A stretch of DNA of 32,000 nucleotides from Sedimentisphaera cyanobacteriorum (GCF_001997385.1 NZ_CP019633.1:1560001-1592000), one strand, 5' to 3'. Shown: positions 7,508-32,000, numbered from the stretch's first letter. Numbers and translations: made by a program. The notes: generated by a model not told the origin, from the letters alone.

Positions 7508-7528
7508 GCTTATTAAGTCTTAACAGGA

Positions 7529-8623: not shown

Positions 8624-9877
8624 TCATCCCATAAGAGCTGTAATGATAGTTACAATCGGCAGGAACATAGCAAGAACAATCGTTCCTACGATAAGGCCGA
8701 GTCCGACAATCATCAAAGGCTCAATAAGAGACATCAGAGAACCTACAAGTACATCCACATCTTCATCGAAGTTGTCTGCAACTTTGTAGAGCATTTTATC
8801 GAGATCACCTGTTTCCTCGCCCACATCAATCATATTGACAACGAGCGGGTCAACGGATTTTGTTTTCCTTAGCGGATTTGCGAATGTATCACCCTGCCTG
8901 ATAGCCACATGCACCTTATCGAGCACGCCGGCATAAATCTCATTGTCAGCTGTGTCTCTCGTGATATTGATTGCGTCGAGAATAGGAACACCTGCGCTGA
9001 TAAGCGTACCGAGCGTTCTTGTCCAGCGGGCAACACAGATTTTGTATGAAAGAACACCTACGACAGGCAGCCTGAGCTTAATCTTATCAAGAACGAGCCT
9101 TCCGAAACGGAATTTGCGTATAAATTTAAGAAAAATCTTGAAGGCTATCGGAAAAGCTATCACATAGACCCAGCCGTACTGGTTTGAGATCCAGTCGCTC
9201 AAGTCCATAAGGGCGAGCGTAATTCCGGGCAGCTCTGCCTTTCCGTCGGTCATATCTACAAGCACCTCAGCAAACTGAGGCACGATAAATTTCATCAAAC
9301 CCAAAAGAATTAAAATAGCTATCGCAAGAACTACAGTAGGGTAGGTAAGAGCACTTTTTACCCTTGATTTGAGCTTTTCAGCAGATTCGTAGAAATCTGC
9401 AACACGATTGAGAATAACATCGAGAACACCGCCGAGCTCGCCGGCAGCAATCATATTAACGAAAAGGGTGTCGAAACATTTGTTGTACTTCGCCATAGAC
9501 TCTGAAAGGCTCAAACCGCCTTCAATATCCTCAGACATAGCAGAAATAATCTTCTTGAGCGGCTTGCCCTTTTTCTGCTGCTCCTCGAGAATCTGGAGAG
9601 AGCGCAAAACCGAAAGTCCTGCATCCTGAAGCGTACTGAGCTGCCTTGCGAACTGGGTAACGTCTTTTGTACCGACCCTTTTATTCACACCAAACCGGCC
9701 TCTTCGCCGGCTTGTATCCACTTTAACCTTTTTCCCACCGCCTTTGGCCTTTATCTTTGTTGGATAATTGCCCTGATTGCGTATCTTGCTTCCGGCCTCC
9801 TTGCTGTTAAGGGCTTCAATTTCGGCCTTGAATTCCTTGCCGTTGGCATCTAAGGCTATATATTCAAAAACTGGCAT
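8624..9877 (-). CDS. gspF: T2SS/T4P inner-membrane platform protein (GspF/PilC family)
   Basis: 417 aa. Duplicated GspF-type cytoplasmic domains (FARQLSTLQDAGLSVLRSLQIL...; WTRTLGTLISAGVPILDAINI...) alternate with hydrophobic segments. AAGGAG RBS lies 10 nt after the upstream stop. Confidence 0.9.
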   Translation of the reverse strand: MPVFEYIALDANGKEFKAEIEALNSKEAGSKIRNQGNYPTKIKAKGGGKKVKVDTSRRRGRFGVNKRVGTKDVTQFARQLSTLQDAGLSVLRSLQILEEQQKKGKPLKKIISAMSEDIEGGLSLSESMAKYNKCFDTLFVNMIAAGELGGVLDVILNRVADFYESAEKLKSRVKSALTYPTVVLAIAILILLGLMKFIVPQFAEVLVDMTDGKAELPGITLALMDLSDWISNQYGWVYVIAFPIAFKIFLKFIRKFRFGRLVLDKIKLRLPVVGVLSYKICVARWTRTLGTLISAGVPILDAINITRDTADNEIYAGVLDKVHVAIRQGDTFANPLRKTKSVDPLVVNMIDVGEETGDLDKMLYKVADNFDEDVDVLVGSLMSLIEPLMIVGLGLIVGTIVLAMFLPIVTIITALMG

Positions 9878-9887
9878 TTCTCACTCC

Positions 9888-11636
9888 TTACTCTTCATCA
9901 GCAATGGTCTCCTTGACAACTTCTTCAATGGTCGTAAGCCCATCATAGATTGCCCTGAGCCCGCTTTCTCTAAGTAATACCATACCGCCTTTTCTTGCAG
10001 AGTTCCTGAGAACGGCAGTTGAGGCGTCATTCATTATCAAATCACGAATTTCATCGTTGAAGGCCATAATTTCAAAAATGCCGAGTCTGCCTTTGTAACC
10101 TGTGTTGTTGCAAACATCGCAGCCTCTGCCCCTGTAAAACTTTTTACCCTTCACATCGGAGGGGGTTAGGCCGAGTTCCATAAGCTCTTCTTCGGCCGGC
10201 TGATACTCCCTTTTGCAGTTCTGGCATACACGCCTTACAAGACGCTGTGCAACGATAGCCTCTACAGTTGCAGTAACGAGGAATTTCTCGAGGCCGAGGT
10301 CCAACAGACGAGCCACAGCACTCGGTGCGTCGTTGGTGTGAACCGTAGTTAAAACGAGGTGTCCTGTTAGGGCAGCTTCAGCAGAGATCTGGGCTGTCTG
10401 AAAATCTCGAATCTCACCAACCATTATCACGTCTGGGTCCTGCCTTAAGATTGATCTCAAACAGGCAGGGAACGTGAGGCCGATATCCGTTCTTATCTGA
10501 ACCTGATGAAGGCCTTCAACATCGTACTCTACCGGATCCTCAGTTGTGATTACCTTTCTTTCAATGCTGTTGAGCTCTTTGAGGCCTGCATAGAGTGTGG
10601 TTGTTTTTCCTGAGCCGGTTGGGCCGGTAACGATGACAATCCCGTTCGGCCTTCCGATAACCTGCTCCATAAGATCAACCTCCCTAGGCCCGAGGCCGAG
10701 CTCACTCATTGTAAGCTCAATCTGGGAGCGGTCTAAAACACGAAGCACTACGCTCTCGCCGAATACCGTGGGCAGTATGCTCACACGCATATCCACCTGT
10801 CGGTTGTTGAGAGTAAGCGAGATACGGCCGTCCTGAGGGAGACGCCTTTCGGAAATATCCAGATCCGCCATTACCTTAACCCTCGAACTGAGAGCTACAG
10901 CAATATGCTTAGGCGGAGGAACCATCTCGTAGAGCACCCCGTCAATACGGTAGCGCATGCGGTAGCTCTCTTCAAAAGGCTCGAAGTGTATATCGGAGGC
11001 CTTGTCGTTTATCGCCTGAATCAAAACAAGATTCAGCAGCTTCTTAACAGAGCTGGATTCGGCAAGCTCGGAGATCTCGTCGAGGTCGATACTCTCATCG
11101 CGGCCTTCCATACTTGTAAGGAAGGAATCCTTCTCGATCTCTCCGATAATTTCGTTTATGTTGCCCTTGTCTTTTGAGTAGTACCTGTCCAGCACCTGAT
11201 CAAGGGAATTTTTAGATGTAACCACAGCCTTGACATTATAGCCCATCAAACTCTTGAGCTCATCTGTAGCCCTGAAATTGTTCGGGTCGTCTATTGCTAT
11301 GGTGAGAAGGTTATCTGACTTGCTGAAATCAACAGGAACAATCCTGTAGGAGGCTGCCATTTGTGCCGGAATAGTGCTGGCCACCTCGTCGCTGAGCTCC
11401 ATCCCTTCAATCTCGCTGTATTCCATTCCCCTCTGCGCGGCCAATGCTACGTTCAGCTGCTGCTGGGTAATGTGCCCCTGGGATATCAGGATCTGCCCAA
11501 GCTTTTGCCCCGCCATCTCGGACTTCTGCAGCTTGATGCATTCATGCAGAACATTCCTCGTAAGGATGCCCTTCTTTATAAGGACCCTTCCAAGGTATCT
11601 ACCCCTGAGTTGATCTAATGGGACTTCTTTAGCCAT
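9888..11636 (-). CDS. gspE: PilB/GspE-type assembly ATPase, copy 2, with N-terminal MshEN-like domain
   Basis: 582 aa. Walker A GPTGSGKTT; Asp box TTEDPVEY; Walker B VIMVGEIRD; His box TGHLVLTTVHTNDA; tetracysteine CQNC...CDVCNNTGYKGRLGIFE. The N-terminus carries two tandem LGxxLIxxGxIxxxxLxxxLxxQ motifs. Confidence 0.9.
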   Translation of the reverse strand: MAKEVPLDQLRGRYLGRVLIKKGILTRNVLHECIKLQKSEMAGQKLGQILISQGHITQQQLNVALAAQRGMEYSEIEGMELSDEVASTIPAQMAASYRIVPVDFSKSDNLLTIAIDDPNNFRATDELKSLMGYNVKAVVTSKNSLDQVLDRYYSKDKGNINEIIGEIEKDSFLTSMEGRDESIDLDEISELAESSSVKKLLNLVLIQAINDKASDIHFEPFEESYRMRYRIDGVLYEMVPPPKHIAVALSSRVKVMADLDISERRLPQDGRISLTLNNRQVDMRVSILPTVFGESVVLRVLDRSQIELTMSELGLGPREVDLMEQVIGRPNGIVIVTGPTGSGKTTTLYAGLKELNSIERKVITTEDPVEYDVEGLHQVQIRTDIGLTFPACLRSILRQDPDVIMVGEIRDFQTAQISAEAALTGHLVLTTVHTNDAPSAVARLLDLGLEKFLVTATVEAIVAQRLVRRVCQNCKREYQPAEEELMELGLTPSDVKGKKFYRGRGCDVCNNTGYKGRLGIFEIMAFNDEIRDLIMNDASTAVLRNSARKGGMVLLRESGLRAIYDGLTTIEEVVKETIADEE

Positions 11637-11692
11637 AATTAGCTTTCTCCGTCTTCTTTGCGAAACTCGAGCATTATTGAAGCTCTAACATT

Positions 11693-11720
11693 AATATAAC
11701 ACTGAAAAACCGCATTACAA
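11693..11720 (-). promoter_or_regulatory. Putative internal sigma70-type promoter (extended -10) upstream of gspE copy 2
   Basis: On the minus strand, TTGTAA-N16-(TGT)TATATT sits in the 175-bp pilT/gspE gap. The RBS gacggag follows. Confidence 0.3.
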
Positions 11721-11811
11721 GCAATAAAAAGGTTAGACACTTAGTAATTGAAACAGCCTCTTTGTATAGAATGCGGATTTGGGCTTTTGAAACATCCAAA
11801 TTTTGGGCGTC

Positions 11812-12948
11812 TCAGGCCTGGCCGAGAGTCTGCATTTCTCCAATGATCGGCCCCATTTTTGCGTGGTCGGGGTCTTTGGGGAAGTTTTCCCTTGCCTTCT
11901 TGAGCATCTCTGCGGGGTTTCTGGATTTGTCAACCAGCTCCATAAGGGAAATCTGCCCCTTCTGATAAAGCTCCCATAAGTGGTCGTCAAGAAGCCTCAT
12001 ACCCAGATTGCGGCATGTCTGTATGGTTGATTCAATCCTATAGGTCTTATTTTCCCTGATAAGGTTTGAAATAGCTGGAGTAACAAGCATAAACTCGTAT
12101 GCCGCTACCCTGCCTTTTGCATTCTTAACCGGACAAAGCGTTTGAGAAAGCACGGCAATAAGGTTGGTACTGAGCTGCACCCTGATCATTTCCTGCTGAT
12201 TGGTAGGGAAGGCATCAATAATCCTGTTTACAGTTCCCTGACAGCCGGTGGTGTGAAGCGTTCCAAATACCAAGTGTCCAGTCTCTGCGGCACTTATAGC
12301 AGCCTCGATTGTATCGAGATCGCGAAGCTCACCTACGAGAATAACATCGGGGTCCTGACGCAGAGATCTCTTCAGTGCCTCAGCAAAAGTGGGCACATCA
12401 AGCCCTACCTCACGCTGGTTTATAACCGCCCTTTTGTGGTTATGATAATACTCAATCGGCTCTTCCACAGTAATGATATGTGTATCAAGATTTTCGTTGA
12501 TATAGTTAATCATACTTGCAAGCGTTGTCGTTTTACCCGAACCAGTTGGGCCGGTAACGAGGAACAGGCCTCTCGGGCGTCTGCAAAGGCTGGCAGTTGG
12601 GCCGGGGAGGCCAATCTGATCAAATGATAAAAACTTTGAGGGAATCAGACGAAGAACCATCGAAATATTGCTCTTCTGCCTGAAAACCGCCACACGGAAA
12701 CGACCGTAATCGCCGAAAGCGAAACCAAAATCGCAGCTTCCGTCTTCCTGAAGCTGCTGCTGATTTTTCTCCGGCGTAATACTTTTCATAAGGGCTGTAG
12801 TGTCCTCAGAATCCAGCACTTTTGTATCCAGTGATTTGAGCGATCCGCTGATACGAAGTGTCGGCGGGCGGCCTACGACAATATGTATATCTGAGCCCCC
12901 CATTCTGATACAAGCATCAAGTAACCTGTCAATTTGTATAGTTGCCAT
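11812..12948 (-). CDS. pilT: PilT-type retraction ATPase
   Basis: 378 aa. SDIHIVVGRPPTLRISG; Walker A GPTGSGKTT; DPDVILVGELRD; ETGHLVFGTLHT; PilT signature AISNLIRENK. No N-terminal T2SSE_N domain and no tetracysteine motif. Confidence 0.9.
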   Translation of the reverse strand: MATIQIDRLLDACIRMGGSDIHIVVGRPPTLRISGSLKSLDTKVLDSEDTTALMKSITPEKNQQQLQEDGSCDFGFAFGDYGRFRVAVFRQKSNISMVLRLIPSKFLSFDQIGLPGPTASLCRRPRGLFLVTGPTGSGKTTTLASMINYINENLDTHIITVEEPIEYYHNHKRAVINQREVGLDVPTFAEALKRSLRQDPDVILVGELRDLDTIEAAISAAETGHLVFGTLHTTGCQGTVNRIIDAFPTNQQEMIRVQLSTNLIAVLSQTLCPVKNAKGRVAAYEFMLVTPAISNLIRENKTYRIESTIQTCRNLGMRLLDDHLWELYQKGQISLMELVDKSRNPAEMLKKARENFPKDPDHAKMGPIIGEMQTLGQA

Positions 12949-12992
12949 TTATGTAAATCCTGTAATTTTATAATGATATTATAAATAATTTT

Positions 12993-14705
12993 TTATTCGA
13001 TAACAATCTCGTCGCTCTGCGCAACTCTGGCCACCTCTTCGGGCGTTGTGTAGCCTGAGAAGATCTTCTTAATCCCGTCTTCAACCAGAGGCCTCATCCC
13101 GCTTGAAAGGGCAGCTTTTCGAAGCTCCTGAGTAGGAGCGCAGGCAAACGCAAGCTCTCTCAATTCTGTATTCATTTCGAGCATTTCGAAAATAGCCATA
13201 CGCCCCTTATAGCCTGTGCCGTTGCACCTGCTGCAGCCTTTTCCTTTGTATATTGGTTTTTCTTTGAAGTCTTCATTTTGAATGTTCAATGCACGAAGGT
13301 ATCTTGAATCGGGTTCATGGTCAACCTCCTTGCATTCAGAGCAAATCCTTCTTACAAGCCTCTGAGCCATAATGGCCTGTATCGAACTTGCCACGAGGAA
13401 AGGCTTAACGCCCATGTCAATCAAACGAGCTACAGCACTTGAGGCATCGTTTGTATGGAGTGTACTGAATACCAAGTGTCCTGTGAGAGCTGCCTGAATG
13501 GCGATATCAGCCACCTCGCCGTCTCGAATCTCACCAACAAGAATAACATTCGGCGACTGCCTCAGCATAGAACGCAGGATAGTGGAAAAATCAAGTTTGA
13601 TTTCCGTATTAACCTGACACTGATTTATTCCGCCTACCATATACTCAACAGGGTCTTCAGCGGTAATAATCTTCTTATCCGGACGGTTAAGCTCTTTCAG
13701 AGCTGAGTAGAGCGTAGTTGTTTTACCAGAACCCGTTGGGCCGGTAACAAGGAAAATACCGTTCGGCCTCTTGATAATTTTTTCAAATCTGCCGTAAAGC
13801 TCGTCATCAAACCCGAGTGCCTGAATACCGATATTAACATTATCCGGACGCAGAATACGAAGAACAATGCTCGGGCCGTGATACCCGGGAAGGCAGGATA
13901 CACGAAAATCGATCTGCGTTCCTTTGTACTCCCTCTTAATACGGCCGTCCTGAGGAATCCTTCTTTCCGCAATATCCATATTGGAAAGAATCTTGAAACG
14001 GGCAATCAGCGGATTCTGCATATTCTTGGGCACATCGCTTCGCTCTATGCACACGCCGTCGATTCTGTAGCGAATACGCACCCTTGAGGCCATTGATTCA
14101 ATATGAATATCCGAAGCCCCCATATTAACCGCTTCATCAATAATCAGATTAGCAAGCTTGATTACAGGCCCGTCATCATCGGCCTGCTCGGCATTGCCTG
14201 CAATCTTGATTGTGCTTTCAATTGTCTCGCCCTCTTCGAAGAGGTCTTCAGTAGCCTTATCGATGCTGTCTCGTATTACATCTGTAGCCTTATTGATGTA
14301 TTCCCGAATTCGAGTTGGACTGCCTACATAACATTCGAGGTCTTTGTTGAATTTGAAGCGGAGCGTGTCGAGAGCCTCGAGATTTCGAGGGTCTGAGATG
14401 ATTATTTTCATTTTTCCGTTCTCTTCGCCGAACGGGATTGCCTGTAGGGATTTTACGATGTCCTTGGGGAGATAAGTCTCTACGTTTTCAGGGAGCCTGA
14501 TCTGATCGAAATCGGCGTATTTCATTCCTGCCTGCTTGGCAAGAGCCGAAGCCACATCATCCTCGGTTACCGCGCCCATTTCTACAAGAACCTCGCCTGT
14601 AAGCCGGTCTGTCTTTTGAGCAGTTTTTACTGCTTTTGCCAGAGGCAGCTTATCAACGAGATTCCTACCGTAAAGAATTTCTCCAATTCTTTTTTTCTTA
14701 GCCAT
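12993..14705 (-). CDS. gspE: PilB/GspE-type assembly ATPase, copy 1
   Basis: 570 aa. Walker A GPTGSGKTT; AEDPVEY; VILVGEIRD; TGHLVFSTLHTNDA; CSEC...CSRCNGTGYKGRMAIFE. An N-terminal T2SSE_N-like domain is present with degraded MshEN motifs. Confidence 0.9.
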   Translation of the reverse strand: MAKKKRIGEILYGRNLVDKLPLAKAVKTAQKTDRLTGEVLVEMGAVTEDDVASALAKQAGMKYADFDQIRLPENVETYLPKDIVKSLQAIPFGEENGKMKIIISDPRNLEALDTLRFKFNKDLECYVGSPTRIREYINKATDVIRDSIDKATEDLFEEGETIESTIKIAGNAEQADDDGPVIKLANLIIDEAVNMGASDIHIESMASRVRIRYRIDGVCIERSDVPKNMQNPLIARFKILSNMDIAERRIPQDGRIKREYKGTQIDFRVSCLPGYHGPSIVLRILRPDNVNIGIQALGFDDELYGRFEKIIKRPNGIFLVTGPTGSGKTTTLYSALKELNRPDKKIITAEDPVEYMVGGINQCQVNTEIKLDFSTILRSMLRQSPNVILVGEIRDGEVADIAIQAALTGHLVFSTLHTNDASSAVARLIDMGVKPFLVASSIQAIMAQRLVRRICSECKEVDHEPDSRYLRALNIQNEDFKEKPIYKGKGCSRCNGTGYKGRMAIFEMLEMNTELRELAFACAPTQELRKAALSSGMRPLVEDGIKKIFSGYTTPEEVARVAQSDEIVIE

Positions 14706-16639: not shown

Positions 16640-17089
16640 TTAAAAACTCACGCCGCCGTCAGCGTCTTTCTGCGGGGGCTTTTCAACCTTACGGCATACA
16701 ATCCTTCTTTCGCCAAGCATCGTTCCGTTAGCGTAAATCTGGAAGCGGTATTCCCCGGGTTCAGGGAAAACAACACCCTGCATTTTCAGGGCAAGGGTGA
16801 GAATGTGTCTTACATCTCGAAATTCGACAGTTTTTTTCTGATTAAACAGGACTTTGTCGTCTTCTTCCAAGTCAACAAGAACTATCTCTACTTCCGTCTG
16901 TCCGTGGCCGTTAGTAAGTTCGCAGAAAAACACCAGCTCGGAATGACGCAATGGGAAATTTACAGAATTTACTACCTGCACGATATTTATAATACTCGGC
17001 ATACCGGATATTCGGTCAAAAATCACCCTGTCGCAGGTAATCGCCGAAAGCATAACTGGAGGTACTTCTGACATTATGAATCCATCCAT
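16640..17089 (-). CDS. Hypothetical protein (small, soluble, no motif I recognise)
   Basis: 149-aa ORF with coding-like composition, flanked by AT-rich gaps of 133 and 268 bp. The alternative ATG 17074 is preceded by ggatgga. A possible TTGTTA-N16-TAGAAT promoter lies at 17135-17162. Confidence 0.5.
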   Translation of the reverse strand: MDGFIMSEVPPVMLSAITCDRVIFDRISGMPSIINIVQVVNSVNFPLRHSELVFFCELTNGHGQTEVEIVLVDLEEDDKVLFNQKKTVEFRDVRHILTLALKMQGVVFPEPGEYRFQIYANGTMLGERRIVCRKVEKPPQKDADGGVSF

Positions 17090-17222: not shown

Positions 17223-18565
17223 TTAAAATTCCATTTCGCTCTCGAGGAATCCAGTATCAATTTGGTTGTTCCTGTATGAGGGGTGATCAATTATCTGGAG
17301 CGAAGCAGGTATTGTAGTTTTGATCGGAGCTATACGGAATTCCTGCAAGGCGCGTTTCATAGTAGCAAGAGCCGTTTCCCTGTCGGGCTGGTGAACGAGC
17401 AGCTTTGCAATCATAGAATCATAATTCGGCGAGATAAAATCCCCCTGCTTGAGGAAAGTTTCCACACGTACGCCAAAACCGCCCGGCACAAAAAACTCAT
17501 CTATAGGCCCGGGGCTGGGGCGAAATTCATCTGGGGATTCTCAGCGTTTATCCTGCACTCTATCGCGCATCCCTCAAGCTTTATATCATCCTGAGATACC
17601 GGCAGGGGCAGTCCCGCTGCCACAAGTATCTGATGCTTGATAAGGTCTTGGCCCGTAACAAGCTCAGAAACAGGGTGCTCAACCTGTATCCTGGTATTAA
17701 CTTCAATAAAGTAGAAGTTGTTATCCTTGTCGAGGAGGAATTCAATTGTAGCAGCGTTGTGGTAGTTCGCCTCTTTCAGCAGTCTCTTTGCGGCTTCGCA
17801 GAGCTTTTCCCTTGTTTCAGGCTTAATCACCGGACATGGAGCTTCTTCGATTAGCTTCTGATGCCTTCTCTGGACAGAGCAGTCTCGTTCGTAGAAGTGA
17901 ACCACATTTCCGTAAGTATCCGCCAATGCCTGCACCTCAACGTGCCTGGGGCGTTCGATGAACTTCTCTATGTAAACCTCATCATTCTTGAAGGCAATCT
18001 CCGCCTCGCTTTTTGCAGCAGTAAGGGCATTTTTCAGGTTCAGGTCGTTGTGAACAACCCTCATTCCCCTGCCGCCTCCGCCTGCGGAAGCCTTTACTAT
18101 AACTGGAAATCCAATCTCTTTTGCAAGCTCGAAAGCCTGAGCCTCAGATTCAATCGCCCCATCAGAGCCCGGAACAACGGGCACATCGGCCTTCAAGGCA
18201 ATCTCTCTTGCCTTTACCTTATCCCCAAGCTGCTTCATAGATTCCGGCGATGGGCCGATAAATGTAATCCCGCAGTCTGCGCATATCTCGGCAAACTCCG
18301 CATTCTCTGCAAGAAATCCGTAGCCGGGATGAATCGCATCAACATCTGTTATTTCCGCTGCGCTTATAATAGCCTGCACATTCAGATAGCTTTTAGCAGG
18401 CTGGGCAGGACCGATACAAACTGCATGGTCTGCGAACTTAACATAGGAGGCGTTTCTATCCGCCTCTGAAAACACTGCTACAGATTCTATACCAAGCTCT
18501 TTACAGGCACGAATTACCCGAAGGGCAACCTCGCCCCTGTTTGCAATCAAAATTCTTGAAAACAT
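17223..18565 (-). pseudogene. accC: Acetyl-CoA carboxylase biotin carboxylase (accC), split into 354-aa and 88-aa ORFs by a 1-nt frameshift
   Basis: The N-terminal fragment [26 protein letters not shown]...[14 protein letters not shown]...CRINAENP then leaves the homologous frame. The homologous sequence continues in the -1 frame as [25 protein letters not shown]...DSMIAKL. The shift maps to the C4 run (G4 on the + strand, 17533-17536). Confidence 0.9.
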
Positions 18566-23011: not shown

Positions 23012-25302
23012 AGGCGAACTCAAAACCCAGCAAGCATCAAATCGTAAGTATTTTAGTGTGGCTGGCTTTTTTTGTATATGCCGGCCACTGTTTTTCTCAT
23101 ATGGTTGCCGCAGGTGATACGTGGGTAGCAATGGCCTGCGGCAGGCATTTTTCGAACCACGGCGTTGATACTGTAGAGCCGTTCAGCGCTAACTCTCACT
23201 CTACAGGGCCTACCGAAGAAGACCTTGAGCCCTGGCCGGAATTTACCCACGATTTCCTGAAAGAATACCATCCAACAGGCTGGATAAATCAAAACTGGCT
23301 TACTCAGCTCATATTCTTTGAAATAGCCGGAGGCGAGGGCAGCAAAACAAACTACGACAGGCTGAACTACAACGCTATGGTTGTATGGAAGTTTATCATC
23401 TGCCTGCTTGTAATATGCAGCGTTTACTATAGCTCACGCCTTCTCGGGGCAGGAAAGATAAACGCAGCGTTTTTTGCAGCGGTTTCTGTATTTGTGGGCA
23501 GAAGCTTCTACGACATCCGACCTGCTGTATTTTCGAATATGCTTGTGCCGGTATTTATCCTGATTCTGCTTTTGAGCCAGCGGAAAAACAGACGGTTTAT
23601 ATGGCTGAGCGTCCCGCTTATTGTTTTCTGGGGCAATGTACACGGCGGATACCTTTACGCCTTCATTACGTTGTTTCTTTTCTGGGCAATCAACCTGATT
23701 GTCTGGAAGTTTAAGCCGCGATTCTGCAAGCTTTGCTCAGGCCAGCTTATAATCGACACAATGCTTGCAGGTGCTGCATCGTTTATAGCGATGGTAATCT
23801 TAAACCCCTACCACCTGACCAACCTCACCCATACGTTCATAATTACAGTCAGCGAGCATGCTTCAGAATGGAAAGATGTAAACGAATGGCACAGCGCTTT
23901 TGAGCTGAGCAATCCGGTGGGAACTTCGATTCCGTTTATCATAATGCTCGGGCTGGGCGGTGCGGCCCTGCTTGTCTGGGGAATAATCACTGTTGCCAAG
24001 ATAAAAAAGGCTGGCAGATTGCAAGCAAACAAAACGAAAAATATATCAGCAGATTCAGAGCCTCCCGGAAAGCCTCAAATTGACCCTGCTTATATCGCTA
24101 TAGTTTTATTCTCATTGTGGATGGCAGTAAGCTCGAGAAGATTTATTCCAATTGCATCTGCAGCCTTCTGCCCGCTTCTTGCTATGATAGCCCAGCAGGC
24201 CATAAACAAAATCTCAAATAACCTATCTGCAATGCCCGACAGGAAGCGCCTCTTAGAAAAAATATCAATAGCAGCATTTGCAGCTTTCGTGCTTATCCCG
24301 GGCGTGCTTTGGGCGGGCAAATTCAAGAAGGTTTATTTAGACCCATTCTGCCTCGACGATACGTACAACAGCATTTTTATGCGTATGACCGCTTCTTACG
24401 CCAAACCGTTTGAGGCATGTGAATTTATTCGGGAAAACAATCTATCCGGAAATATGCTCAACTACTGGACAGAAGGCGGCTTCATAGCATTTATGCAAAA
24501 CCCCGACCCCGAAACTGGCTTTATCCCGCTAAAGCTGTTTATGGACGGACGTGCTCAGGCGGCCTATGATATCGAGATGTTCAGAACTTATAAAAACGAA
24601 ATAATGAGCGGCGGGGAAGACTTCCGAAGAATTGCCCAAAAAGCAAGGCGCCAGAGAAAAAGGCTATCAAGCTTCAAAGAAGAGCTCAGAGAGGCCTCGA
24701 AGAAAATGGATGAAAGGCTCAACAGCAAAGAAGTATGGATATATCTGATGCCTTCAAATGCTGTTAAAAGCGGTTTTATGACCCTTATGCGGTACAACAG
24801 CGACTGGAAACCGGTTTATATCGACGGCAAGCAGTCTATATTTGTTGACACTGACACGGAAAAAGGGCTTGAGCTCTACAAGGGGCTTTTCAACGGCGAT
24901 ACCAAGTACCCTTCAGAACACATACGGAAAACCTCGCTCATTCATTATCTGATCGGTTCAAAGCCGGAAGAGGCGTACAGGCGGGCACGCAAACTCTACG
25001 AGAAATCCGAAGAACTTCTTGCAATGAAACTGCTCACAGATTCAGCAAGAACCAAAGAGCTAAAAGAGAAGGCGTATGAATACTGCAAAGCAGAGATATC
25101 CGATTTTGTGAAAGAGAAAGACCAGCTCCACAAGCAGGACGGGTATATAAATAAGTACAGCATTGCTGATATATGCCTGAAGTTTGTTATAAATAACAGC
25201 AAAGATTTTGCAAGCGACAAAAACAAGATCTCGGTTTACAAGTCTTACAGGGAGCAGCTCAAAGAAGAGACAGGGCGAATCAGGGAAGCAACTAAATGGT
25301 AA
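22996..25302 (+). CDS. Large polytopic membrane protein, GT-C-fold glycosyltransferase-like, with ~300-aa helical C-terminal soluble domain
   Basis: 768 aa with about 12 hydrophobic helices in the first ~450 aa. An acidic residue lies in the first loop (AAGDTWVAMACGRHF...EPFS), as in ArnT/PMT-type enzymes. It overlaps aspC by 16 nt and the following GT2 gene by 7 nt. The family assignment is an inference, not a recognised signature. Confidence 0.45.
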   Translation: MADELKANSKPSKHQIVSILVWLAFFVYAGHCFSHMVAAGDTWVAMACGRHFSNHGVDTVEPFSANSHSTGPTEEDLEPWPEFTHDFLKEYHPTGWINQNWLTQLIFFEIAGGEGSKTNYDRLNYNAMVVWKFIICLLVICSVYYSSRLLGAGKINAAFFAAVSVFVGRSFYDIRPAVFSNMLVPVFILILLLSQRKNRRFIWLSVPLIVFWGNVHGGYLYAFITLFLFWAINLIVWKFKPRFCKLCSGQLIIDTMLAGAASFIAMVILNPYHLTNLTHTFIITVSEHASEWKDVNEWHSAFELSNPVGTSIPFIIMLGLGGAALLVWGIITVAKIKKAGRLQANKTKNISADSEPPGKPQIDPAYIAIVLFSLWMAVSSRRFIPIASAAFCPLLAMIAQQAINKISNNLSAMPDRKRLLEKISIAAFAAFVLIPGVLWAGKFKKVYLDPFCLDDTYNSIFMRMTASYAKPFEACEFIRENNLSGNMLNYWTEGGFIAFMQNPDPETGFIPLKLFMDGRAQAAYDIEMFRTYKNEIMSGGEDFRRIAQKARRQRKRLSSFKEELREASKKMDERLNSKEVWIYLMPSNAVKSGFMTLMRYNSDWKPVYIDGKQSIFVDTDTEKGLELYKGLFNGDTKYPSEHIRKTSLIHYLIGSKPEEAYRRARKLYEKSEELLAMKLLTDSARTKELKEKAYEYCKAEISDFVKEKDQLHKQDGYINKYSIADICLKFVINNSKDFASDKNKISVYKSYREQLKEETGRIREATKW

Positions 25303-26024
25303 ACGAAGAAGCTCTTAAGCCGGCACTGAGTGTTTTCTTCCCGTGCTTCAATGAAGAGCAAAATCTGGGCGGACTCATTGAGGAAACGCTCAGCTTCCTG
25401 CCTGAAATAAGCGATAATTTTGAGATAATAGCAGTTGACGACGGCAGTACAGACAAAACAGCCCAAATCGCTCAAGAATACGCCCGAAAAGATTCAAGAG
25501 TGAGATTAGTGAGCCACGATTCCAACAAGGGATACGGAGAGGCTCTCAAAACCGGCTTCAGAGAAGCGAGTAAAGAGTATGTTTTCTACACAGACGGTGA
25601 TAAGCAGTTTTCGATTAAAGATTTGAGCAGGATTATCCCGCTTGCAGCAGGCGAAGATGCACCAGCGGATATCGTCTCCTGCTACCGTCAAAACCGTCAG
25701 GACAACATCTTCAGGAAACTCACCGGACATACTTGGAACATCCTTATGTGCCTGCTCTTCGGCTTTAAGCTCAAGGATATCGACTGCGCTTTTAAGCTTT
25801 ACCGCAGAGAAATATTTGATAATATTAAGCTCAAGAGCTCAGGAGCGCTTATAGACACTGAAATACTCGTGAGAGCCCGTAAGAAGGGGTTTAGGATTAC
25901 TCAGCTGCCGGTCAGACATTACCCGAGGGTTTACGGGGAGTCTTCCGGGGCCAAACCTGCTGTAGTTTTCAAAGCGTTTGCAGAGCTTTCAAAATTGTGG
26001 CTTGATATAGTGACGGATCACTAA
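25296..26024 (+). CDS. GT2 family polyprenyl-phosphate glycosyltransferase (Dpm1/GtrB/ArnC-like)
   Basis: 242 aa. LSVFFPCFNEEQNL...IIAVDDGSTDKT...NKGYGEALKTGF...YTDGDKQF...DIDCAFKLYRRE (GT2 DxD and catalytic blocks). Confidence 0.8.
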   Translation: MVNEEALKPALSVFFPCFNEEQNLGGLIEETLSFLPEISDNFEIIAVDDGSTDKTAQIAQEYARKDSRVRLVSHDSNKGYGEALKTGFREASKEYVFYTDGDKQFSIKDLSRIIPLAAGEDAPADIVSCYRQNRQDNIFRKLTGHTWNILMCLLFGFKLKDIDCAFKLYRREIFDNIKLKSSGALIDTEILVRARKKGFRITQLPVRHYPRVYGESSGAKPAVVFKAFAELSKLWLDIVTDH

Positions 26025-27163
26025 TGGCTTGTTCAGATACTTTTTTCAGGCCCGACCTCAGGGCCAGCATAGATTCTCGAAGACTAACCGGCAATGTTAA
26101 TCAGCTCCGCGGACTCACGCCGGCGGATAATAAATTCTGCGCCGTAGTAAAAGCAAACGCCTATGGACACGGTATCAGGGAAGTTGCTAACCTGCTGAAA
26201 GATGAGGATGTGGATTTTTTTGCAGTTGCGAGTATTTTTGAGGCTGTTTACATAAAGCCTTTGATTAGTCGTCAAAACATCCTTGTATTCGAGCCGCTTA
26301 ATATCTGCACACCCGCCAAATATATAGATTTCGCTTGCAGAAATGATGTACACTGGGCAATATGCTCACTCGAAGCAGCTAAAAGGGCATCGCAGCTTGC
26401 CGGCGGGAAAAAGCTGAAACTGCATATCAATATAGAAACCGGAATGGGAAGGCTCGGGCTCGAACCAACTCAGGCAGAAGAGCTTATAAACTTCATAGCA
26501 GACTCGCCCAAACTCGAATTGGCAGGGATTTACACGCATTTCGCAACCGCGGACGAAGATGACCTCTCTTTCGCTTATGAACAGCTCGAAAATTTTAAGC
26601 GATTTATTAAAACCAATCAGAACTTCTTAGATGAAAACGTAATCCGGCATGCCGCAAACAGCGCCGCATGCATTAAGATACCAGAATCTCATTTTGATAT
26701 GGTAAGATGCGGGATCAGTATGTACGGTTATTTCTCCAGATCGCAGAGACACGCCCCCGTAAATTTGAGCCCTGTGATGAAGCTTGAGGCGCCGATAGTG
26801 CATATCAAAAAGCTGCCTGCGGGCAGGTCTGTAAGCTACGGGCGGTCTTATTTCACCAAACGTGAAACGGCAACGGCGATAATCCCCTCCGGCTATGCAG
26901 ACGGGTATTCAAGGCTTTATTCGAATAATGCTTTTGTGAGGATAGGCGAAAAGTTTGCTCCTGTTATAGGCAGGGTATGTATGGATCAGATAATGGCCGA
27001 TGTAACAGATATCCCTGAAGCGAAGGTAGGCCAGTTCGCTGTTATAATAGACAACGACCAGAGCTCTCCGGCAGGTGCCTACTGCCTTGCGAATGCCTCA
27101 AACACAATCTGCTATGAGATACTAATCAGCGTACATGAACACGTAAGACGAACAGTAATCTGA
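26024..27163 (+). CDS. alr: Alanine racemase
   Basis: 379 aa. PLP-Lys motif AVVKANAYGHG; ...HIETGMGRLG...THFATAD...VSYG...GRVCMDQ. Its start overlaps the GT2 stop by 1 nt (TAATG). Confidence 0.9.
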   Translation: MACSDTFFRPDLRASIDSRRLTGNVNQLRGLTPADNKFCAVVKANAYGHGIREVANLLKDEDVDFFAVASIFEAVYIKPLISRQNILVFEPLNICTPAKYIDFACRNDVHWAICSLEAAKRASQLAGGKKLKLHINIETGMGRLGLEPTQAEELINFIADSPKLELAGIYTHFATADEDDLSFAYEQLENFKRFIKTNQNFLDENVIRHAANSAACIKIPESHFDMVRCGISMYGYFSRSQRHAPVNLSPVMKLEAPIVHIKKLPAGRSVSYGRSYFTKRETATAIIPSGYADGYSRLYSNNAFVRIGEKFAPVIGRVCMDQIMADVTDIPEAKVGQFAVIIDNDQSSPAGAYCLANASNTICYEILISVHEHVRRTVI

Positions 27164-27263: not shown

Positions 27264-27291
27264 TTGACAGTCAATTTGTTATTACTAAAAT
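27264..27291 (+). promoter_or_regulatory. Putative sigma70-type promoter with palindromic -35 region, upstream of the PilT-like gene
   Basis: TTGACA (27264-27269), N16, TAAAAT (27286-27291). The -35 is embedded in the perfect inverted repeat TTGAC-a-GTCAA. The ORF-track TTG start at 27264 is this hexamer. Confidence 0.5.
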
Positions 27292-27344
27292 TTCGATTCT
27301 GTTCTTATTTTATTCAAATTTTTATCTTTCAGAGGACAATAAAA

Positions 27345-28478
27345 ATGACAAAGGGACAACCAATAGACAGTCATCGGAGCGTAAATCATAATCCGAAAAT
27401 AAACAAGTTTTTTAAAACCGTTATCTCATACAAAGCGAGCGACCTCCATCTTAAAGTAGGCCTTCCGCCTAAGATGCGTATAGACGGTGTTCTCAAGAAG
27501 ATGAAGGCAGACGTAATCACAGAAGAGACAATGGAAGATCTTATCTTCGATCTTCTCACAGAAGAGCAGAAAAAATTCTTCCTCAAGCGCGGCTCAATAG
27601 ACTTTGCCCACGCCCTAACTGAGATTGACAGATTCCGTGTGAACGTATTCCGCCAGAAGGGATACATAGGGCTTGTTGCAAGGCGTATTGATTCGAATAT
27701 CCCGCCTTTTGAAAAGCTGAACCTGCCCCCCATTATTCGAGATATAGCAGAATATCCCACTGGGCTTGTGCTTGTGGTAGGGCCTACCGGCTCAGGCAAG
27801 AGTACTACAATTGCATCAATGATAGACAAAATCAACAGAGAGCGTGCCTGCCATATAGTAACCGTTGAGGATCCTATCGAATATGTCCATCAGGACAGAA
27901 AGGCCAATGTTAATCAGCGTGAGGTGGGCATAGACTGTGTTGACTTTAAGGACGCTCTGCGTAGCCTTATGAGGCAGGATCCGGATGTAGTGCTTGTGGG
28001 TGAAATTCGAGACGTGGAAACGCTGGAAGCAGCTATGCAGGCGGCAGAGACAGGCCATCTTGTATTTGGTACACTTCACGCAGCAAGCGCTTCTCAGACT
28101 ATACAGCGTATTCTAGATATGTTCCCGCAGGAAGAAAGGGAACTTGCAAGGCAGACATTTGCACTTACTATCAGGGGAATCATCGCCCAGATGCTGCTTC
28201 CGAGTATTGACCCGAAAGTTAAGAGGGTTCCGGCGCTTGAGATTATGGTAGCAAATCCATCGGTGAGGAAGCTGCTGAAAGAGGAAAGGGAAGATGACAT
28301 CCCTTCTGTAATACGCTCATCACAAAATGAAGGTATGCAGGACTTGACAGAAAGCCTGAGAATACTTATAGAAAAAGAACTTATAGACCTCGACAACGCC
28401 CTGGTATACGCACCGAACAAAGAAGAGCTGAGGATGGCAATAAAAGGAATCAGAGCTAATTCAAGCGCAATTCTCTAA
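27345..28478 (+). CDS. Divergent PilT/PilU-family hexameric ATPase
   Basis: ATG 27345 is preceded by agagga. ASDLHLKVGLPPKMRIDG; Walker A GPTGSGKST; VEDPIEY; DPDVVLVGEIRD; ETGHLVFGTLHA. The PilT signature AIRNLIRE is replaced by PSVRKLLKE. Confidence 0.85.
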   Translation: MTKGQPIDSHRSVNHNPKINKFFKTVISYKASDLHLKVGLPPKMRIDGVLKKMKADVITEETMEDLIFDLLTEEQKKFFLKRGSIDFAHALTEIDRFRVNVFRQKGYIGLVARRIDSNIPPFEKLNLPPIIRDIAEYPTGLVLVVGPTGSGKSTTIASMIDKINRERACHIVTVEDPIEYVHQDRKANVNQREVGIDCVDFKDALRSLMRQDPDVVLVGEIRDVETLEAAMQAAETGHLVFGTLHAASASQTIQRILDMFPQEERELARQTFALTIRGIIAQMLLPSIDPKVKRVPALEIMVANPSVRKLLKEEREDDIPSVIRSSQNEGMQDLTESLRILIEKELIDLDNALVYAPNKEELRMAIKGIRANSSAIL

Positions 28479-28535
28479 TGTGCAGCAGGGTAGGCTTTGA
28501 AAACTAAATACAAACAGATTAACGGAGCATAATAG

Positions 28536-30167
28536 ATGTATTACTTATCCCTTTTAGCAGATATATCCTTCTCCGGCTATATTGCGATCTACAAATTTAT
28601 ACCATTTGTTTTGCTGTTTTATTTATGGCTTCTGCTTGTCAATTGGGTTCATTTCGACACAAAGGCCGTTCAGACAGACACAATGAAATGGGTTTCGATT
28701 ATTACTGCAGGCGGGCTTATGGCGATGTGCCTATGGCTTTTTGTGCCTGTATTTATAATCGGCTTCTCATCTTATCTGCTCTTAATGATCACCACAATAA
28801 TGGTTTACGTGATCCACAGAAACTCACTTGTTGCTGATTTTGAAAAAGTACTCACGCTAAACCATATCAAAGGGCTTTTGAGCAACGAATCTGCAAAAAT
28901 CGAAAAAGCCGCTCGCGGATTCAGTTTCGTAACTGCAAACGGCAACCCCGTTGAGATACCCGAGCCCAAAACGAAAGAGGCATACGGCTTCAAAACAGCC
29001 TGCTATCTGCTTGATGATGCGATCTGGAAAAGGGCTGAGCTGATCAAGATCACGCCCGGGGAAGAAGAATACAAAGTTAATTACGTAATAGACGGACTGA
29101 AAAACGATGCCGACCCAATAGAAGCTGAAGAAATGCCCTACCTGCTCTACTATCTCAAACAGCTTGCAGATTTGGATGTGGAGGAGAAAAGAAAGCCGCA
29201 GACAGGAAAATTCCAAACGAAAAAAGACGGCGATAAGTCAAGCTGGCATATCACTACTGCCGGTTCAAGACAGGGCGAACACATTACTATAAAGAAGGAT
29301 GTACAGTTCAGCCTGATGTCTTTTGCAGAGCTGGGCTTTGAATCCGACCAGATCGACGAGCTGAAAAAACTCAAGGACGCCCCGAAGGGACTGTTCCTTG
29401 TTGCTGGGACAAAAGGCTCTGGTCTTACCTCCTGCCACTACACGCTGCTGAGAAATCACGATCCGTTCCTCAACAGCATCAACACACTTGAGAAATCACC
29501 CGCAGGCGACGTACAAAGCATTATTCAGAATGTTTACGACCCTAGCGAGGGAATGAGCTATGCAGAGCGGCTTAAGGCTCTGATAAGAAGAGGCCCTGAT
29601 ATTGTGGGCGTGTTCGACTGCAACGACCCTGAAACAGCAAAGGCTGCATGCGAGGCCTCGAAGAAGAAGCTAATTTACGTATCAATAGAATCAAAGACAG
29701 CTCTTAAAGGCCTTGCACATTGGATAAAGATGGTTGGCGACAAAAAAGAGGCTATTGAACCCTTGATAGGACTTGCCTCCAGCCACCTTGTAAGAAGGCT
29801 TTGCGAGGAGTGCAGGGAAGAATACATCCCGAACCCCGGCACACTCAAGAAACTCAGCATAGCTCCTGAGAGGGTTAAATCTCTATGGAGACCTGGAGAT
29901 ATCGAATACACCAGAGGCGGAAAACCAATTCTCTGCGAAAACTGCCAGGGACAGGGCTACAAAGGCCGAGTGGGCGTTTATGAGTCCTTCGTATTAAGCG
30001 AAGAGGTTAGAAAAGAGATGCTTGCGGCTAAGAGTATAAAGGAAATCAGCGCTTCGCTGAAACGAAACGGGATGCAGTTTTTCCAGGAAAGACTCACGCA
30101 GAAAATATCAGATGGAAGCACAAGCATCAACGAAATGATACGAGTATTGAAGGTATTAAACGGTTAA
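28536..30167 (+). CDS. Membrane-anchored GspE/PilB-family protein with degenerate catalytic motifs (predicted pseudo-ATPase)
   Basis: 543 aa with about 3 N-terminal TM helices (residues ~14-95). The N2-like domain (YKVNYVIDG...KRKPQTGKF) and the tetracysteine CEEC...CENCQGQGYKGRVGVYE are retained. Walker A is GTKGSGLTS (Lys lost), the Asp box is TLEKSPAGD, Walker B is IVGVFDCND (Glu lost) and the His box is KKKLIYVSIESKTA. Confidence 0.7.
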   Translation: MYYLSLLADISFSGYIAIYKFIPFVLLFYLWLLLVNWVHFDTKAVQTDTMKWVSIITAGGLMAMCLWLFVPVFIIGFSSYLLLMITTIMVYVIHRNSLVADFEKVLTLNHIKGLLSNESAKIEKAARGFSFVTANGNPVEIPEPKTKEAYGFKTACYLLDDAIWKRAELIKITPGEEEYKVNYVIDGLKNDADPIEAEEMPYLLYYLKQLADLDVEEKRKPQTGKFQTKKDGDKSSWHITTAGSRQGEHITIKKDVQFSLMSFAELGFESDQIDELKKLKDAPKGLFLVAGTKGSGLTSCHYTLLRNHDPFLNSINTLEKSPAGDVQSIIQNVYDPSEGMSYAERLKALIRRGPDIVGVFDCNDPETAKAACEASKKKLIYVSIESKTALKGLAHWIKMVGDKKEAIEPLIGLASSHLVRRLCEECREEYIPNPGTLKKLSIAPERVKSLWRPGDIEYTRGGKPILCENCQGQGYKGRVGVYESFVLSEEVRKEMLAAKSIKEISASLKRNGMQFFQERLTQKISDGSTSINEMIRVLKVLNG

Positions 30168-30189
30168 TCATCCTTACTGAGGTTTTGAA

Positions 30190-31299
30190 ATGATAGTAAT
30201 TGGTCTTTTCGCAGTAATAACACTGGCAATATTAGCCGAGGCGATTGTAAAGCCGAATTTTTATAAGTATGTAATAATGCTGTTCTCGATGGTGAGCGGG
30301 CTTGTATTTGCGTTCTCGTTTTTCGAGCCGCTTTCTAAGATTGTATCAAAGATAAACTGGTTCCCGGCGGCAGCAGAAGGACTGTCATTCGTTCTTATTT
30401 TCGGAATATCCTTCGCAATCCTGAAACTGCTTGGAGATTTCACAATTCGCCCGGAATTGAAACTCCCCGACATTGTAAACAGGTCTTTTTCGGCTTTGTT
30501 CTCTTTGATATTCAGCTTTTTTGTTACGGGAATGATAATTGTTTTTCTCTCGATGATGCCCATGGAATCAAAGTACCCTTACCCCAGATACGCAAACAAG
30601 CCGATAGTTACAAACAGCAACTATGAGATTGCACCGGACAATACTTTCCTGAATCTCGATTCAGCGGTTACCGGATTCTACAATATGCTCTCTGCAGGAA
30701 GCCTTAGCGGAGATAAGAATTTCGGTATAGTTCACGACAACTTCATAGACACCAACTTCCTCGACAGAGCTCTTTATGAGGAAGGAGTTTCCCCAATAGC
30801 CGGCGAGAAAGCTATCGATGTACCGAATACACCTCAGGCAGTTCGCAAGGCGCCCAAGCTTATGAAATACGACGAGGTCAATCAAGTAGTGAAGAAGATT
30901 TCCGGCAAGCAGATGTTTCTGGTGAAGGTAGAGATATCTCAGGATAAAGTGAAAAACGGGGGAATAATAGAAAAAGGCGGCGGATACGAAATAGGCCCTG
31001 CCCAGCTTCGCCTTATCTGCAACAAAAACTACGCTGATATGTTCAAGGGCGACGGGCTTTCTGTTTTCCCTGTGGGCTATGTTACAGATAACAGCAAATT
31101 CAAAAAATTTGACCTAAAATCAAAATTTAATCTTCTTCCGCACAAACCCGATAAAAACAAAAATGCGGTATTAGACGTAGGGTTTTATGTTCCTGAAGGC
31201 TACGTACCTGTAGCATTGGAATTGAGACAGGACGATATTGCCAGGGTTCCAAATGTAAACGCAGAGCCTGAAGAAGAGCAATCAGAACAAAACGGATAA
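30190..31299 (+). CDS. Polytopic membrane protein, CvpA-like N-terminal region + unknown C-terminal domain
   Basis: 369 aa with four hydrophobic helices in the first ~125 aa. Spacing and a PDIVNRSFSALFSLIFSFFVTGMIIV segment resemble CvpA (colicin V production) family topology; the similarity is weak. The ~240-aa C-terminal part has no motif I recognise. Confidence 0.4.
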   Translation: MIVIGLFAVITLAILAEAIVKPNFYKYVIMLFSMVSGLVFAFSFFEPLSKIVSKINWFPAAAEGLSFVLIFGISFAILKLLGDFTIRPELKLPDIVNRSFSALFSLIFSFFVTGMIIVFLSMMPMESKYPYPRYANKPIVTNSNYEIAPDNTFLNLDSAVTGFYNMLSAGSLSGDKNFGIVHDNFIDTNFLDRALYEEGVSPIAGEKAIDVPNTPQAVRKAPKLMKYDEVNQVVKKISGKQMFLVKVEISQDKVKNGGIIEKGGGYEIGPAQLRLICNKNYADMFKGDGLSVFPVGYVTDNSKFKKFDLKSKFNLLPHKPDKNKNAVLDVGFYVPEGYVPVALELRQDDIARVPNVNAEPEEEQSEQNG

Positions 31300-31320
31300 T
31301 TCTGGAAACTTTAATAACTA

Positions 31321-32000
31321 ATGGAAAACGAAAACAAAGCGAAACCTGAAAATGCTGCAGGACAGATTCCCGGTTATAAAATACTTGGCAAACTGGGTTC
31401 TGGAGCAATGGCAGTGGTTTACAAGGCCAAGCAGGTTAGCTTAGACAGAACAGTAGCAATAAAGGTTTTGCCGAATAAATTTGTCGGGAAGAGCAACTAT
31501 GTGGAGCGGTTCTACAAAGAAGGCCGGCTTGCAGGAAGGCTTAACCACAACAATATCGTTCAGGCATATGATGTTGGGGAGGCGAAAGGGTTATACTATT
31601 TCGTGATGGAGTATGTAGAAGGCAAGTCTATATACGACGATCTTTCGAAGGGAAAGATATTTGAAGAGAAAAAAGCCCTCGAGATAATGATCCAGCTGGC
31701 CAAGGCATTAGAGCACGCCCACGCACAGGGCCTGATACACCGAGATATCAAACCAAAAAATATAATGATTACCAAAGAAGGCGTTGTTAAGCTTGCAGAC
31801 CTCGGGCTTGCCCGGACAACGGACGACTCTGAAGCAGCAAGTGCGGAAAAAGGCAAGGCCTTCGGAACCCCTTTCTACATCGCCCCAGAGCAGATCAAGG
31901 GGGAAGTGGATATAGACGGCCGTGCAGATATATACGGCCTCGGGGCAACTCTTTATCATATGGTTACCGGCACAGTTCCGTTCAAGGCTCAAAAGCCGGC
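31321..32000 (+). CDS. Hanks-type Ser/Thr protein kinase (N-terminal kinase domain; runs off window)
   Basis: Not in the ORF track because there is no stop in the window. MENENKAK...; Gly loop GSGAMAVVYKA; VAIKV Lys; catalytic loop HRDIKPKN; DLGLA; GTPFYIAPE. Confidence 0.9.
   Translation, partial: MENENKAKPENAAGQIPGYKILGKLGSGAMAVVYKAKQVSLDRTVAIKVLPNKFVGKSNYVERFYKEGRLAGRLNHNNIVQAYDVGEAKGLYYFVMEYVEGKSIYDDLSKGKIFEEKKALEIMIQLAKALEHAHAQGLIHRDIKPKNIMITKEGVVKLADLGLARTTDDSEAASAEKGKAFGTPFYIAPEQIKGEVDIDGRADIYGLGATLYHMVTGTVPFKAQKP

Follow-up and report, generated by a model that had tools for sequence, protein, structure and literature searches.

The ATPases known from the PilB/GspE and PilT families are soluble motors, docking on a PilC/GspF platform to build or retract pilin filaments. 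In the accessory-motor arrangement of PilT and PilU, paralogous ATPases stand side by side and one depends on the other, with PilU being soluble and catalytically active. An N-terminal transmembrane (TM) domain joined to a ring-forming P-loop motor is found in the FtsK/HerA clade, namely in the type IV coupling proteins (TrwB/VirD4) and in FtsK/SpoIIIE. Here we analyze a stretch of 32,000 nt from Sedimentisphaera cyanobacteriorum (Phycisphaerae, Planctomycetota), referred to as the window, in which four consecutive plus-strand genes, G1 to G4, encode a PilT-clade ATPase, a PilB/GspE homologue with TM helices, a CvpA-like membrane protein, and a Ser/Thr kinase. What is new in this locus is a PilB-type ATPase with its own conserved three-TM domain, paired with a PilT paralogue and a CvpA-like protein and with no filament genes attached. 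Judged from sequence comparisons, G1-G2-G3 is a conserved, so far undescribed module in both of the Planctomycetota classes sampled.

A scan with an alignment of G2 relatives, taking one genome per GTDB species, returned at least 579 relatives. The synteny counts given here rest on the best 80 loci, which include 44 of the Phycisphaerae type (Phycisphaerae/Sedimentisphaerales, with a degenerate G2) and 19 from Planctomycetia, together making up the 63 loci with a full-length G2; neighboring genes were clustered over 81 loci. Of the Phycisphaerae-type loci, 41 leave room for G1, and in 39 of these a G1 gene was called directly upstream of G2 (median gap 22 nt); a G3 gene directly follows G2 in 38 of 40 (median gap 55 nt), with identities to the window proteins of 51-83% for G1, 38-68% for G2, and 23-43% for G3. 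The Planctomycetia loci (Isosphaeraceae, Gemmataceae, Singulisphaera) show the order G1-G2-short G3 with a full-length, TM-bearing G2 that is 26-31% identical to that of the window, and most of them have a G1 orthologue (46-51%) before G2 and a CvpA-like protein of 190-270 aa after it. Our crude open reading frame (ORF) caller misses genes in the high-GC Planctomycetia loci owing to antisense ORFs, so tblastn is the better record of G1 adjacency there. Among the loci with no called G1, tblastn placed it next to G2 in L038 and L040, while in L005 it lies 6 kb upstream. Neighbor clustering found no consistently linked family besides G1, G2, and G3, the other recurrent neighbors being housekeeping genes (MgtE, HisA/F-type, EF-G). 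A preliminary description of the window had put forward an undescribed module of all four genes; G1, G2, and G3 do keep a fixed order across the sampled loci, but the kinase is not a core part of the module.

Filament genes are missing next to the trio in most of the loci. No T2SSF (GspF/PilC) gene stood beside G2 in any of the 63 full-length loci, the downstream gene being CvpA-like, and no pilin, platform, or secretin gene was found within 8 kb in about 40 of the 44 Phycisphaerae-type loci or in any Planctomycetia locus. Neither the profile scans of the trio nor the clustering of neighbors over the 81 loci gave a consistently linked pilin, platform, secretin, or peptidase family, in agreement with the preliminary description. 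Of the parts of a type IV filament system (type IV pilus, type II secretion system, Tad, or Com), the module thus contains the ATPases only. Lower-ranked matches from Omnitrophota and Acidobacteria, together with L073 and L079 (labeled Planctomycetia), proved to carry PilB of the ordinary kind, lacking the TM domain and in most cases followed by PilC and pilin genes, and were not counted. PADLOC returned no match for G2 or G3, weak P-loop matches for G1, and the generic PD-T4-6 and Mad6 models for the kinase; this result, the housekeeping context, and the conservation in both sampled classes argue against reading the locus as anti-phage defense. Nothing in the literature searched describes a GspE/PilB anchored by TM helices, an association of CvpA with PilT, or this module in Planctomycetes, and the G1-G2-G3 combination was likewise not described in the profile libraries or solved structures.

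Table 1. Positions of the genes and sites discussed, in window coordinates unless a locus is named
Feature	Position	Strand	Basis or content
Sigma-70-like promoter match, TTGACA-16-TAAAAT	27264..27291	+	pattern match only, 11/12
G1, PilT-clade hexameric ATPase, 377 aa	27345..28478	+	TIGR01420, intact boxes
G2, 3-TM N-terminus, conserved linker, PilB/GspE N2 and C-terminal ATPase domains	28536..30167	+	PF00437, AlphaFold2 (AF2) model
G3, CvpA-like 4-TM domain (1-125), conserved segment, beta-rich domain (~205-355)	30190..31299	+	PF02674, AF2 model
G4, Hanks-type Ser/Thr kinase, 3' part beyond window end	31321..32000	+	Pkinase PF00069
Pseudopilin operon	1-14705	-	MshEN-PilB, PilT, MshEN-PilB, T2SSF, at least 8 N-methyl pseudopilins (200-770+ aa)
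Paralogous module (locus L043)	94-2945		FHA protein, 492-aa TM-ATPase, 217-aa CvpA-like protein; 4 kb upstream of main trio
DUF6941 protein	16640-17089	-	54.7 bits
accC (biotin carboxylase), split	17223-18565	-	354-aa ORF (18565-17501) and 88-aa ORF (17489-17223, C-terminal domain)
GT2 glycosyltransferase	25296-26024		
alr (alanine racemase)	26024-27163		

The four genes are arranged as the preliminary description had claimed, co-directional and separated by short gaps (57 nt between G1 and G2, 22 nt between G2 and G3, and 21 nt between G3 and G4) behind a near-consensus promoter match that follows alr. No terminator-like site was found on the plus strand of the three gaps by pattern scan. The promoter match has the top promoter-like score in the region and lies 54 nt 5' of the G1 start codon, and the same scan found 10 promoter-like sites in the region against 8.0 expected; it is therefore the synteny over 80 species, and not the promoter match, that carries the module beyond chance. 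The mechanically called ORF starts with a TTG at 27264, which is part of the -35 hexamer; the true G1 start is the ATG at 27345, which has AGAGGA upstream and is consistent with the 377-aa length in all orthologues. An Rfam scan of the 5' region gave nothing above cut-off (RAGATH-30, 16.9 bits against 59.5).

G1 scores well above the cut-off of the PilT/PilU family model TIGR01420 (436.2 bits against 319.1) and matches Aquifex PilT (2ewv, E 3e-94), and a Planctomycetia orthologue (L047) reaches 390 bits on the same model. Aligned with Aquifex PilT and with the PilT of the window's pilus operon, G1 has all of its catalytic boxes intact (GPTGSGKST, VTVEDPIEY, DPDVVLVGEIRD, and TGHLVFGTLHA). The PilT signature AIRNLIRE is replaced by SVRKLLKE, and the G2-linked orthologues share NPx[VI]RKL[IL] at this position, where the pilus-operon PilT reads AISNLIRE. 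Intact boxes and a degraded signature had both been reported in the preliminary description, which also called G1 an orphan. That label does not hold, since each of the 52 PilT-like proteins linked to G2 gives a higher score with G1 than with the pilus-operon PilT, which is 43% identical to G1. G1 thus belongs to a PilT clade of its own, made up of orthologues that accompany G2.

G2, which equals an S. cyanobacteriorum protein at 100% identity, retains a recognizable T2SSE domain (PF00437, 148 bits) and falls far below the cut-offs of the GspE (TIGR02533, 180.3 against 630.25) and PilB (TIGR02538, 172.4 against 675.65) equivalogs. Its AF2 model (predicted local distance difference test, pLDDT, 86) has TM helices at residues 18-45, 49-69, and 73-98, followed, after a linker, by the N2 and C-terminal ATPase domains of PilB, and Foldseek aligned it with PilF/PilB/GspE cores at E-values of 1e-37 to 1e-30 (TMt up to 0.90, root-mean-square deviation 2.5 A). 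No MshEN/N1E domain (PF05157) was matched in G2 by Pfam, whereas the domain is present in each of the window's two PilBs. The four boxes are degenerate: Walker A reads GTKGSGLTS, with leucine for lysine, the Asp box NTLEK, and Walker B GVFDCND; no His box remains (KLIYVSIES). The tetracysteine motif CxxC...CxxC, which carries the zinc-binding cysteines, is retained (CEEC...CENC).

All 44 Phycisphaerae-type G2 proteins in our motif table have degenerate boxes and share replacement motifs (GPxKSGVT[ST], NHDPF, NTLE[KR], GPDIVGVxDCxD), although in two of them (L013 and L026) the position of the Walker A lysine is still, or again, basic. In contrast, all 19 Planctomycetia G2 proteins are canonical (GPTG[SA]GK[ST]T, ITxE[DN]PxEY, DPDVxxxGEIRD, TGHxVF[ST]TxH). 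One of these active-type proteins (L047), at 387 bits on PF00437 as opposed to the 148 bits of the window G2, is also under both equivalog cut-offs (458 on TIGR02533 and 413 on TIGR02538). We computed the ratio of nonsynonymous to synonymous substitution rates (dN/dS) against the sister species S. salicampi, where dS was 0.68-0.81 for G1, G2, G3, and alr. The ratio for G2 (0.030) is on par with that for G1 (0.031), with alr at 0.067. This ratio, together with the replacement motifs kept in 44 species, rules out a decaying pseudogene and marks G2 as a pseudo-ATPase under strong constraint. The predicted catalytic loss is a derived, class-specific state of the Phycisphaerae. The "dead GspE" of the preliminary description, with its TM helices and no intact catalytic box, is therefore accurate for that lineage but not as a general state. 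In Planctomycetia, a signal-peptide-like segment often stands ahead of the three TM helices, and a G2 with its N-terminus outside and its ATPase domain inside would fit.

G3 is 369 aa long and has, beyond its CvpA-like region, an extra 240 aa that the family conserves. Its residues 24-128 match PF02674 (Colicin_V/CvpA) at 40.9 bits against a gathering threshold of 29.3; many orthologues fall under that cut-off, several scoring only 18-29 bits. Four TM helices are seen in the AF2 model (pLDDT 70) and by hydropathy, and beta strands lie at residues 218-352. Between these regions is a segment of about 80 aa that is highly conserved (KYPYxRF; LNxDGxV..GSxS) and poorly modeled. The last 240 residues, which the preliminary description had been unable to place, matched nothing in Pfam, NCBIfam, or the PDB, with a best PDB fold match of E 0.15. 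Relatives of G3 are easily missed: a word-indexed search with the single sequence found 2 only, and it took an alignment query with exhaustive HMMER to recover a family of 164 clusters at E<1e-30. By hhalign, the short Planctomycetia form and the long form are homologous (98.4%, E 5e-15). The catalytic loss in G2 coincides with the long G3 (at least 350 aa, with the beta-rich domain where examined), and the class with an active-type G2 has the short one. The dN/dS of G3 is 0.063. Loops 1 and 3 carry clustered positive charges, and in CvpA-domain fusions such as MarP of M. tuberculosis the C-terminal domain is periplasmic; on both counts, the beta-rich domain of G3 is probably periplasmic as well. 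About a quarter of G3 relatives (e.g., in L003, L023, L024, L031, L045, and L046) are larger still, at ~570-610 aa rather than ~360 aa, with an added C-terminal region that has no Pfam match.

A second, paralogous lineage of such genes was found in locus L043. Its 492-aa protein has two predicted N-terminal TM helices and what appears to be a fully active-type T2SSE domain (379 bits), and its 217-aa CvpA-like protein reaches 21.6 bits on PF02674, under threshold. A metagenome scan found the pair of TM-ATPase and CvpA-like protein also in L084, L085, L087, and L088, with ATPase identity down to 57%, gaps within the pairs of 4-8 nt, and CvpA-like proteins of about 200-217 aa. In L043 and L084-L086 a gene for an FHA (phosphothreonine-binding) protein lies upstream. 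No other evidence available speaks as strongly for G2 and G3 working together as this ATPase/CvpA pairing, which recurs in two paralogous lineages. The recurrence also bears on the possibility that the trio forms no complex, in which case the gene order would have been kept by chance and the proteins would act independently, for example with G2 as a membrane sensor or regulator and G3 as a CvpA-type transporter. Housekeeping genes abound in the neighborhood, and they too are kept in partly conserved order (MgtE upstream in 17 loci), as such a view would have it. However, the order, strand, and short gaps of the trio persist between two classes in spite of the low G2 identity, an independent lineage repeats the pairing, and the loss of catalysis in G2 goes with a larger G3, so we regard independent action as quite improbable.

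We tentatively favor, at somewhat less than an even chance, the reading that G1-G2-G3 is one Planctomycetota-specific operon, the products of which form a three-part membrane motor belonging to the PilT/PilB secretion-ATPase superfamily. In such a motor of S. cyanobacteriorum, G1 would be the sole ATP-hydrolyzing subunit, and G2, embedded in the membrane and without catalysis of its own, would serve as a hexameric scaffold or coupler, possibly still binding nucleotide, that recruits G1 or relays its conformational changes into the membrane. G2 could thereby stand in for a GspL/PilM-type tether and perhaps for the platform too, while G3, with both termini outside, would carry the output to the periplasm via its beta-rich domain. 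The ancestral form, presumably still present in Planctomycetia, would have had two active ATPases, one PilB-like and one PilT-like, and a short G3.

Several points weigh against this reading. Complex formation, the oligomeric state of G2, its nucleotide binding, and the topology of G3 are all things that we infer. Four Planctomycetales loci (L050, L055, L064, and L067) have no G1 in the available upstream flank (5.6-8 kb; 3.7 kb in L067). The structure model of G3 is of middling quality and is least confident in the most conserved segment, and the homology of G3 to the second-lineage CvpA-like protein is only moderately supported by sequence profiles (hhalign 81-88% against both G3 forms). To our knowledge, all characterized PilB/PilT pairs act with pilins and a PilC/GspF platform, and a filament-free role is without precedent. 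The stronger proposal that the trio is a filament-independent envelope machine, with a TM-built PilB-type ring, a dedicated PilT-type driver, and a CvpA-like coupling to the periplasm, is one that we consider unlikely. If true, Planctomycetota would use it as a housekeeping device, serving for instance membrane or envelope remodeling, macromolecule uptake, or FtsZ-less division, and in its Phycisphaerae form one of the two motor ATPases would have turned into an obligate pseudoenzyme subunit.

The window itself contains a candidate filament partner. As the preliminary description had noted, a pseudopilin operon with three ATPases of its own (two MshEN-PilBs and a PilT) lies on the opposite strand, 13 kb from the trio. 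This raises the possibility that the trio is a trans-acting part of a pseudopilus machine, resembling a type IV pilus or type II secretion system, that is encoded elsewhere, here by this operon. G2 and G3 would then provide tethering and alignment in the manner of GspL or PilMNO, and G1 would be an extra retraction-type motor on the same PilC. As far as is known, characterized PilT/PilB relatives all act on pilin filaments, which favors this explanation, as does the composition of the operon: two PilBs, PilT, PilC, and at least eight pseudopilins are present, and no PilM/N/O/Q or GspL/M/C/D is visible in the window. In addition, the same MshEN-PilB/T2SSF/pseudopilin operon is divergent to the trio and only 5-6 kb away in four Sedimentisphaerales loci (L019, L028, L034, and L044). 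However, most loci have no pseudopilin operon nearby, including L001 from the complete genome of Anaerohalosphaera lusitana, and the scarcity of pilin, platform, and secretin genes within 8 kb of the trio described above points the same way. Moreover, a PilT and two PilBs are already part of the pilus operon, and the fold search with G3 retrieved no PilP, GspC, PilO, or GspM. The link between the trio and the pseudopilin operon is thus loose, and we judge an accessory role in a pseudopilus to be somewhat unlikely. Several of the window's pseudopilins terminate in SAG.DG.FGT.DDITNF, and a giant pseudopilin-like ORF extends past the window start.

The fourth gene is the Hanks kinase that the preliminary description had named, with Pkinase (PF00069) at 181.5 bits against a cut-off of 31.7 and readable VAIKVL, HRDIKPKN, DLG, and APE motifs. 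Its orthologues in L002 and S. salicampi are 346 and 348 aa long and have a C-terminal TM anchor; the length of 348 aa and the score on NF033483 (313 against 450) rule out a PASTA kinase. That description had placed the kinase in a four-gene unit, in which it would be an integral regulator of the ATPase pair. In favor of such a unit, the kinase follows G3 by 21 nt in Sedimentisphaera (the window, L002, and S. salicampi L083, where it occupies 11129-12175), an orthologue 70-85% identical lies within 8 kb in 10 of the 44 Phycisphaerae-type loci, and the FHA protein ahead of the paralogous TM-ATPase/CvpA-like module (L043, L084-L086) hints at control of such modules by Ser/Thr phosphorylation. 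Nevertheless, the kinase directly follows G3 solely in this one genus. It is 2.6-4.6 kb downstream on the same strand in six loci and 5-6 kb away on the opposite strand in three, and neither the other 34 Phycisphaerae-type loci nor any of the 19 Planctomycetia loci have it within 8 kb. In six Sedimentisphaerales loci (L013, at 10970-12309, and L014, L018, L025, L030, and L040) a radical-SAM gene of ~340 aa intervenes between G3 and the kinase. The kinase dN/dS of 0.008, and its 70-85% identity across the order where G2 has only about 43%, fit a general housekeeping kinase. A four-gene, kinase-controlled unit is hence improbable, and G4 is best read as a tail-anchored housekeeping kinase, a lineage-specific neighbor of the trio and at most a regulator of it. 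A small ORF (~80-130 aa) precedes the radical-SAM gene in five of the six loci, and both genes are missing in Sedimentisphaera. In S. salicampi, the same strand carries, 73 nt past the kinase, a gene for a 624-aa protein without a Pfam or NCBIfam match (L083 12249-14123), with TrkA, HAD hydrolase, and PolA genes downstream of it.

The pairing described here spans both sampled classes of a phylum with unusual cell biology. Should the proposed motor be real, the Phycisphaerae G2 would be a natural example of a motor subunit becoming a pseudoenzyme scaffold under strong selection. The module also provides a first genomic handle on possible partners of the CvpA-family membrane domain. As active-type orthologues occur in Planctomycetia, the class of the tractable Planctopirus and Gemmata, the hypothesis may be testable if those genera carry the module.

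Other genes around the trio call for brief mention. Upstream of G1 in 17 Phycisphaerae-type loci are a minus-strand gene for a ~212-aa signal-peptide protein without a Pfam match, ~3 kb upstream of G2 (e.g., L001 4230-4877), and a plus-strand gene for an MgtE magnesium transporter; a HisA/HisF-type gene is found ahead of G1 in seven Planctomycetia loci. In the window, the segment 22996-26024 begins with the gene for a 768-aa polytopic membrane protein without a Pfam match, the stop of which overlaps the start of the GT2 glycosyltransferase gene, and the latter abuts alr. The same block of three genes is found in S. salicampi and may be an envelope-glycan or peptidoglycan-related set directly upstream of the module. 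Nearer the pseudopilin operon, accC is split by a one-base frame change near AATTTCGCCCCAGCCCCGGGCCTATAG, with the expected protein carrying on in the other frame; either a homopolymer was misread in sequencing, or this essential gene is truly frameshifted. The DUF6941 gene lies between accC and a CinA-like gene.

Compared with the described systems, G2 resembles the type IV coupling proteins and FtsK/SpoIIIE in architecture only. Their ATPases belong to a different clade, which G2 does not match, and the one relevant hit, to PF01580, is a sub-threshold P-loop match of G1. G3 is like CvpA in its four-TM PF02674 region and like MarP in having an extra-membrane C-terminal domain after it; in contrast to the single-domain CvpA of E. 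coli (~160 aa), it adds a conserved segment of ~80 aa and an unmatched beta-rich domain. In the literature searched, we met with no report linking CvpA to a secretion ATPase. The type II secretion core, with GspE, GspL, and GspF, is likewise a membrane-held GspE-type hexamer, and the GspE model TIGR02533 is the top model for G2 (180.3 bits). GspE, however, is soluble and tethered via its N1E domain to the bitopic GspL (4pht, among our Foldseek matches), whereas G2 has TM helices of its own, lacks N1E, stays below the equivalog cut-off, has lost its catalytic boxes, and is not accompanied by an adjacent GspF, GspL, or GspM gene. PilT and PilU share with G1 and G2 the arrangement of neighboring ATPase genes of one superfamily, but G2 is of the PilB/GspE branch, membrane-integral, and, as far as its motifs tell, inactive. 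The trio differs from the type IVa pilus with its PilB, PilT, and PilC in having no PilC, pilin, peptidase, or secretin; the three-TM domain of G2 replaces N1/MshEN, the window lineage of G2 lacks the Walker A lysine, the Walker B glutamate (with aspartate instead), and the His box, and G1 lacks AIRNLIRE. The likenesses to this system are that G1 is a bona fide member of the PilT family and that G2 has the PilB N2 and C-terminal ATPase fold with the tetracysteine motif. In Planctomycetia, moreover, the pair comprises a predicted active PilB-like and a predicted active PilT-like ATPase, as in an extension/retraction pair.

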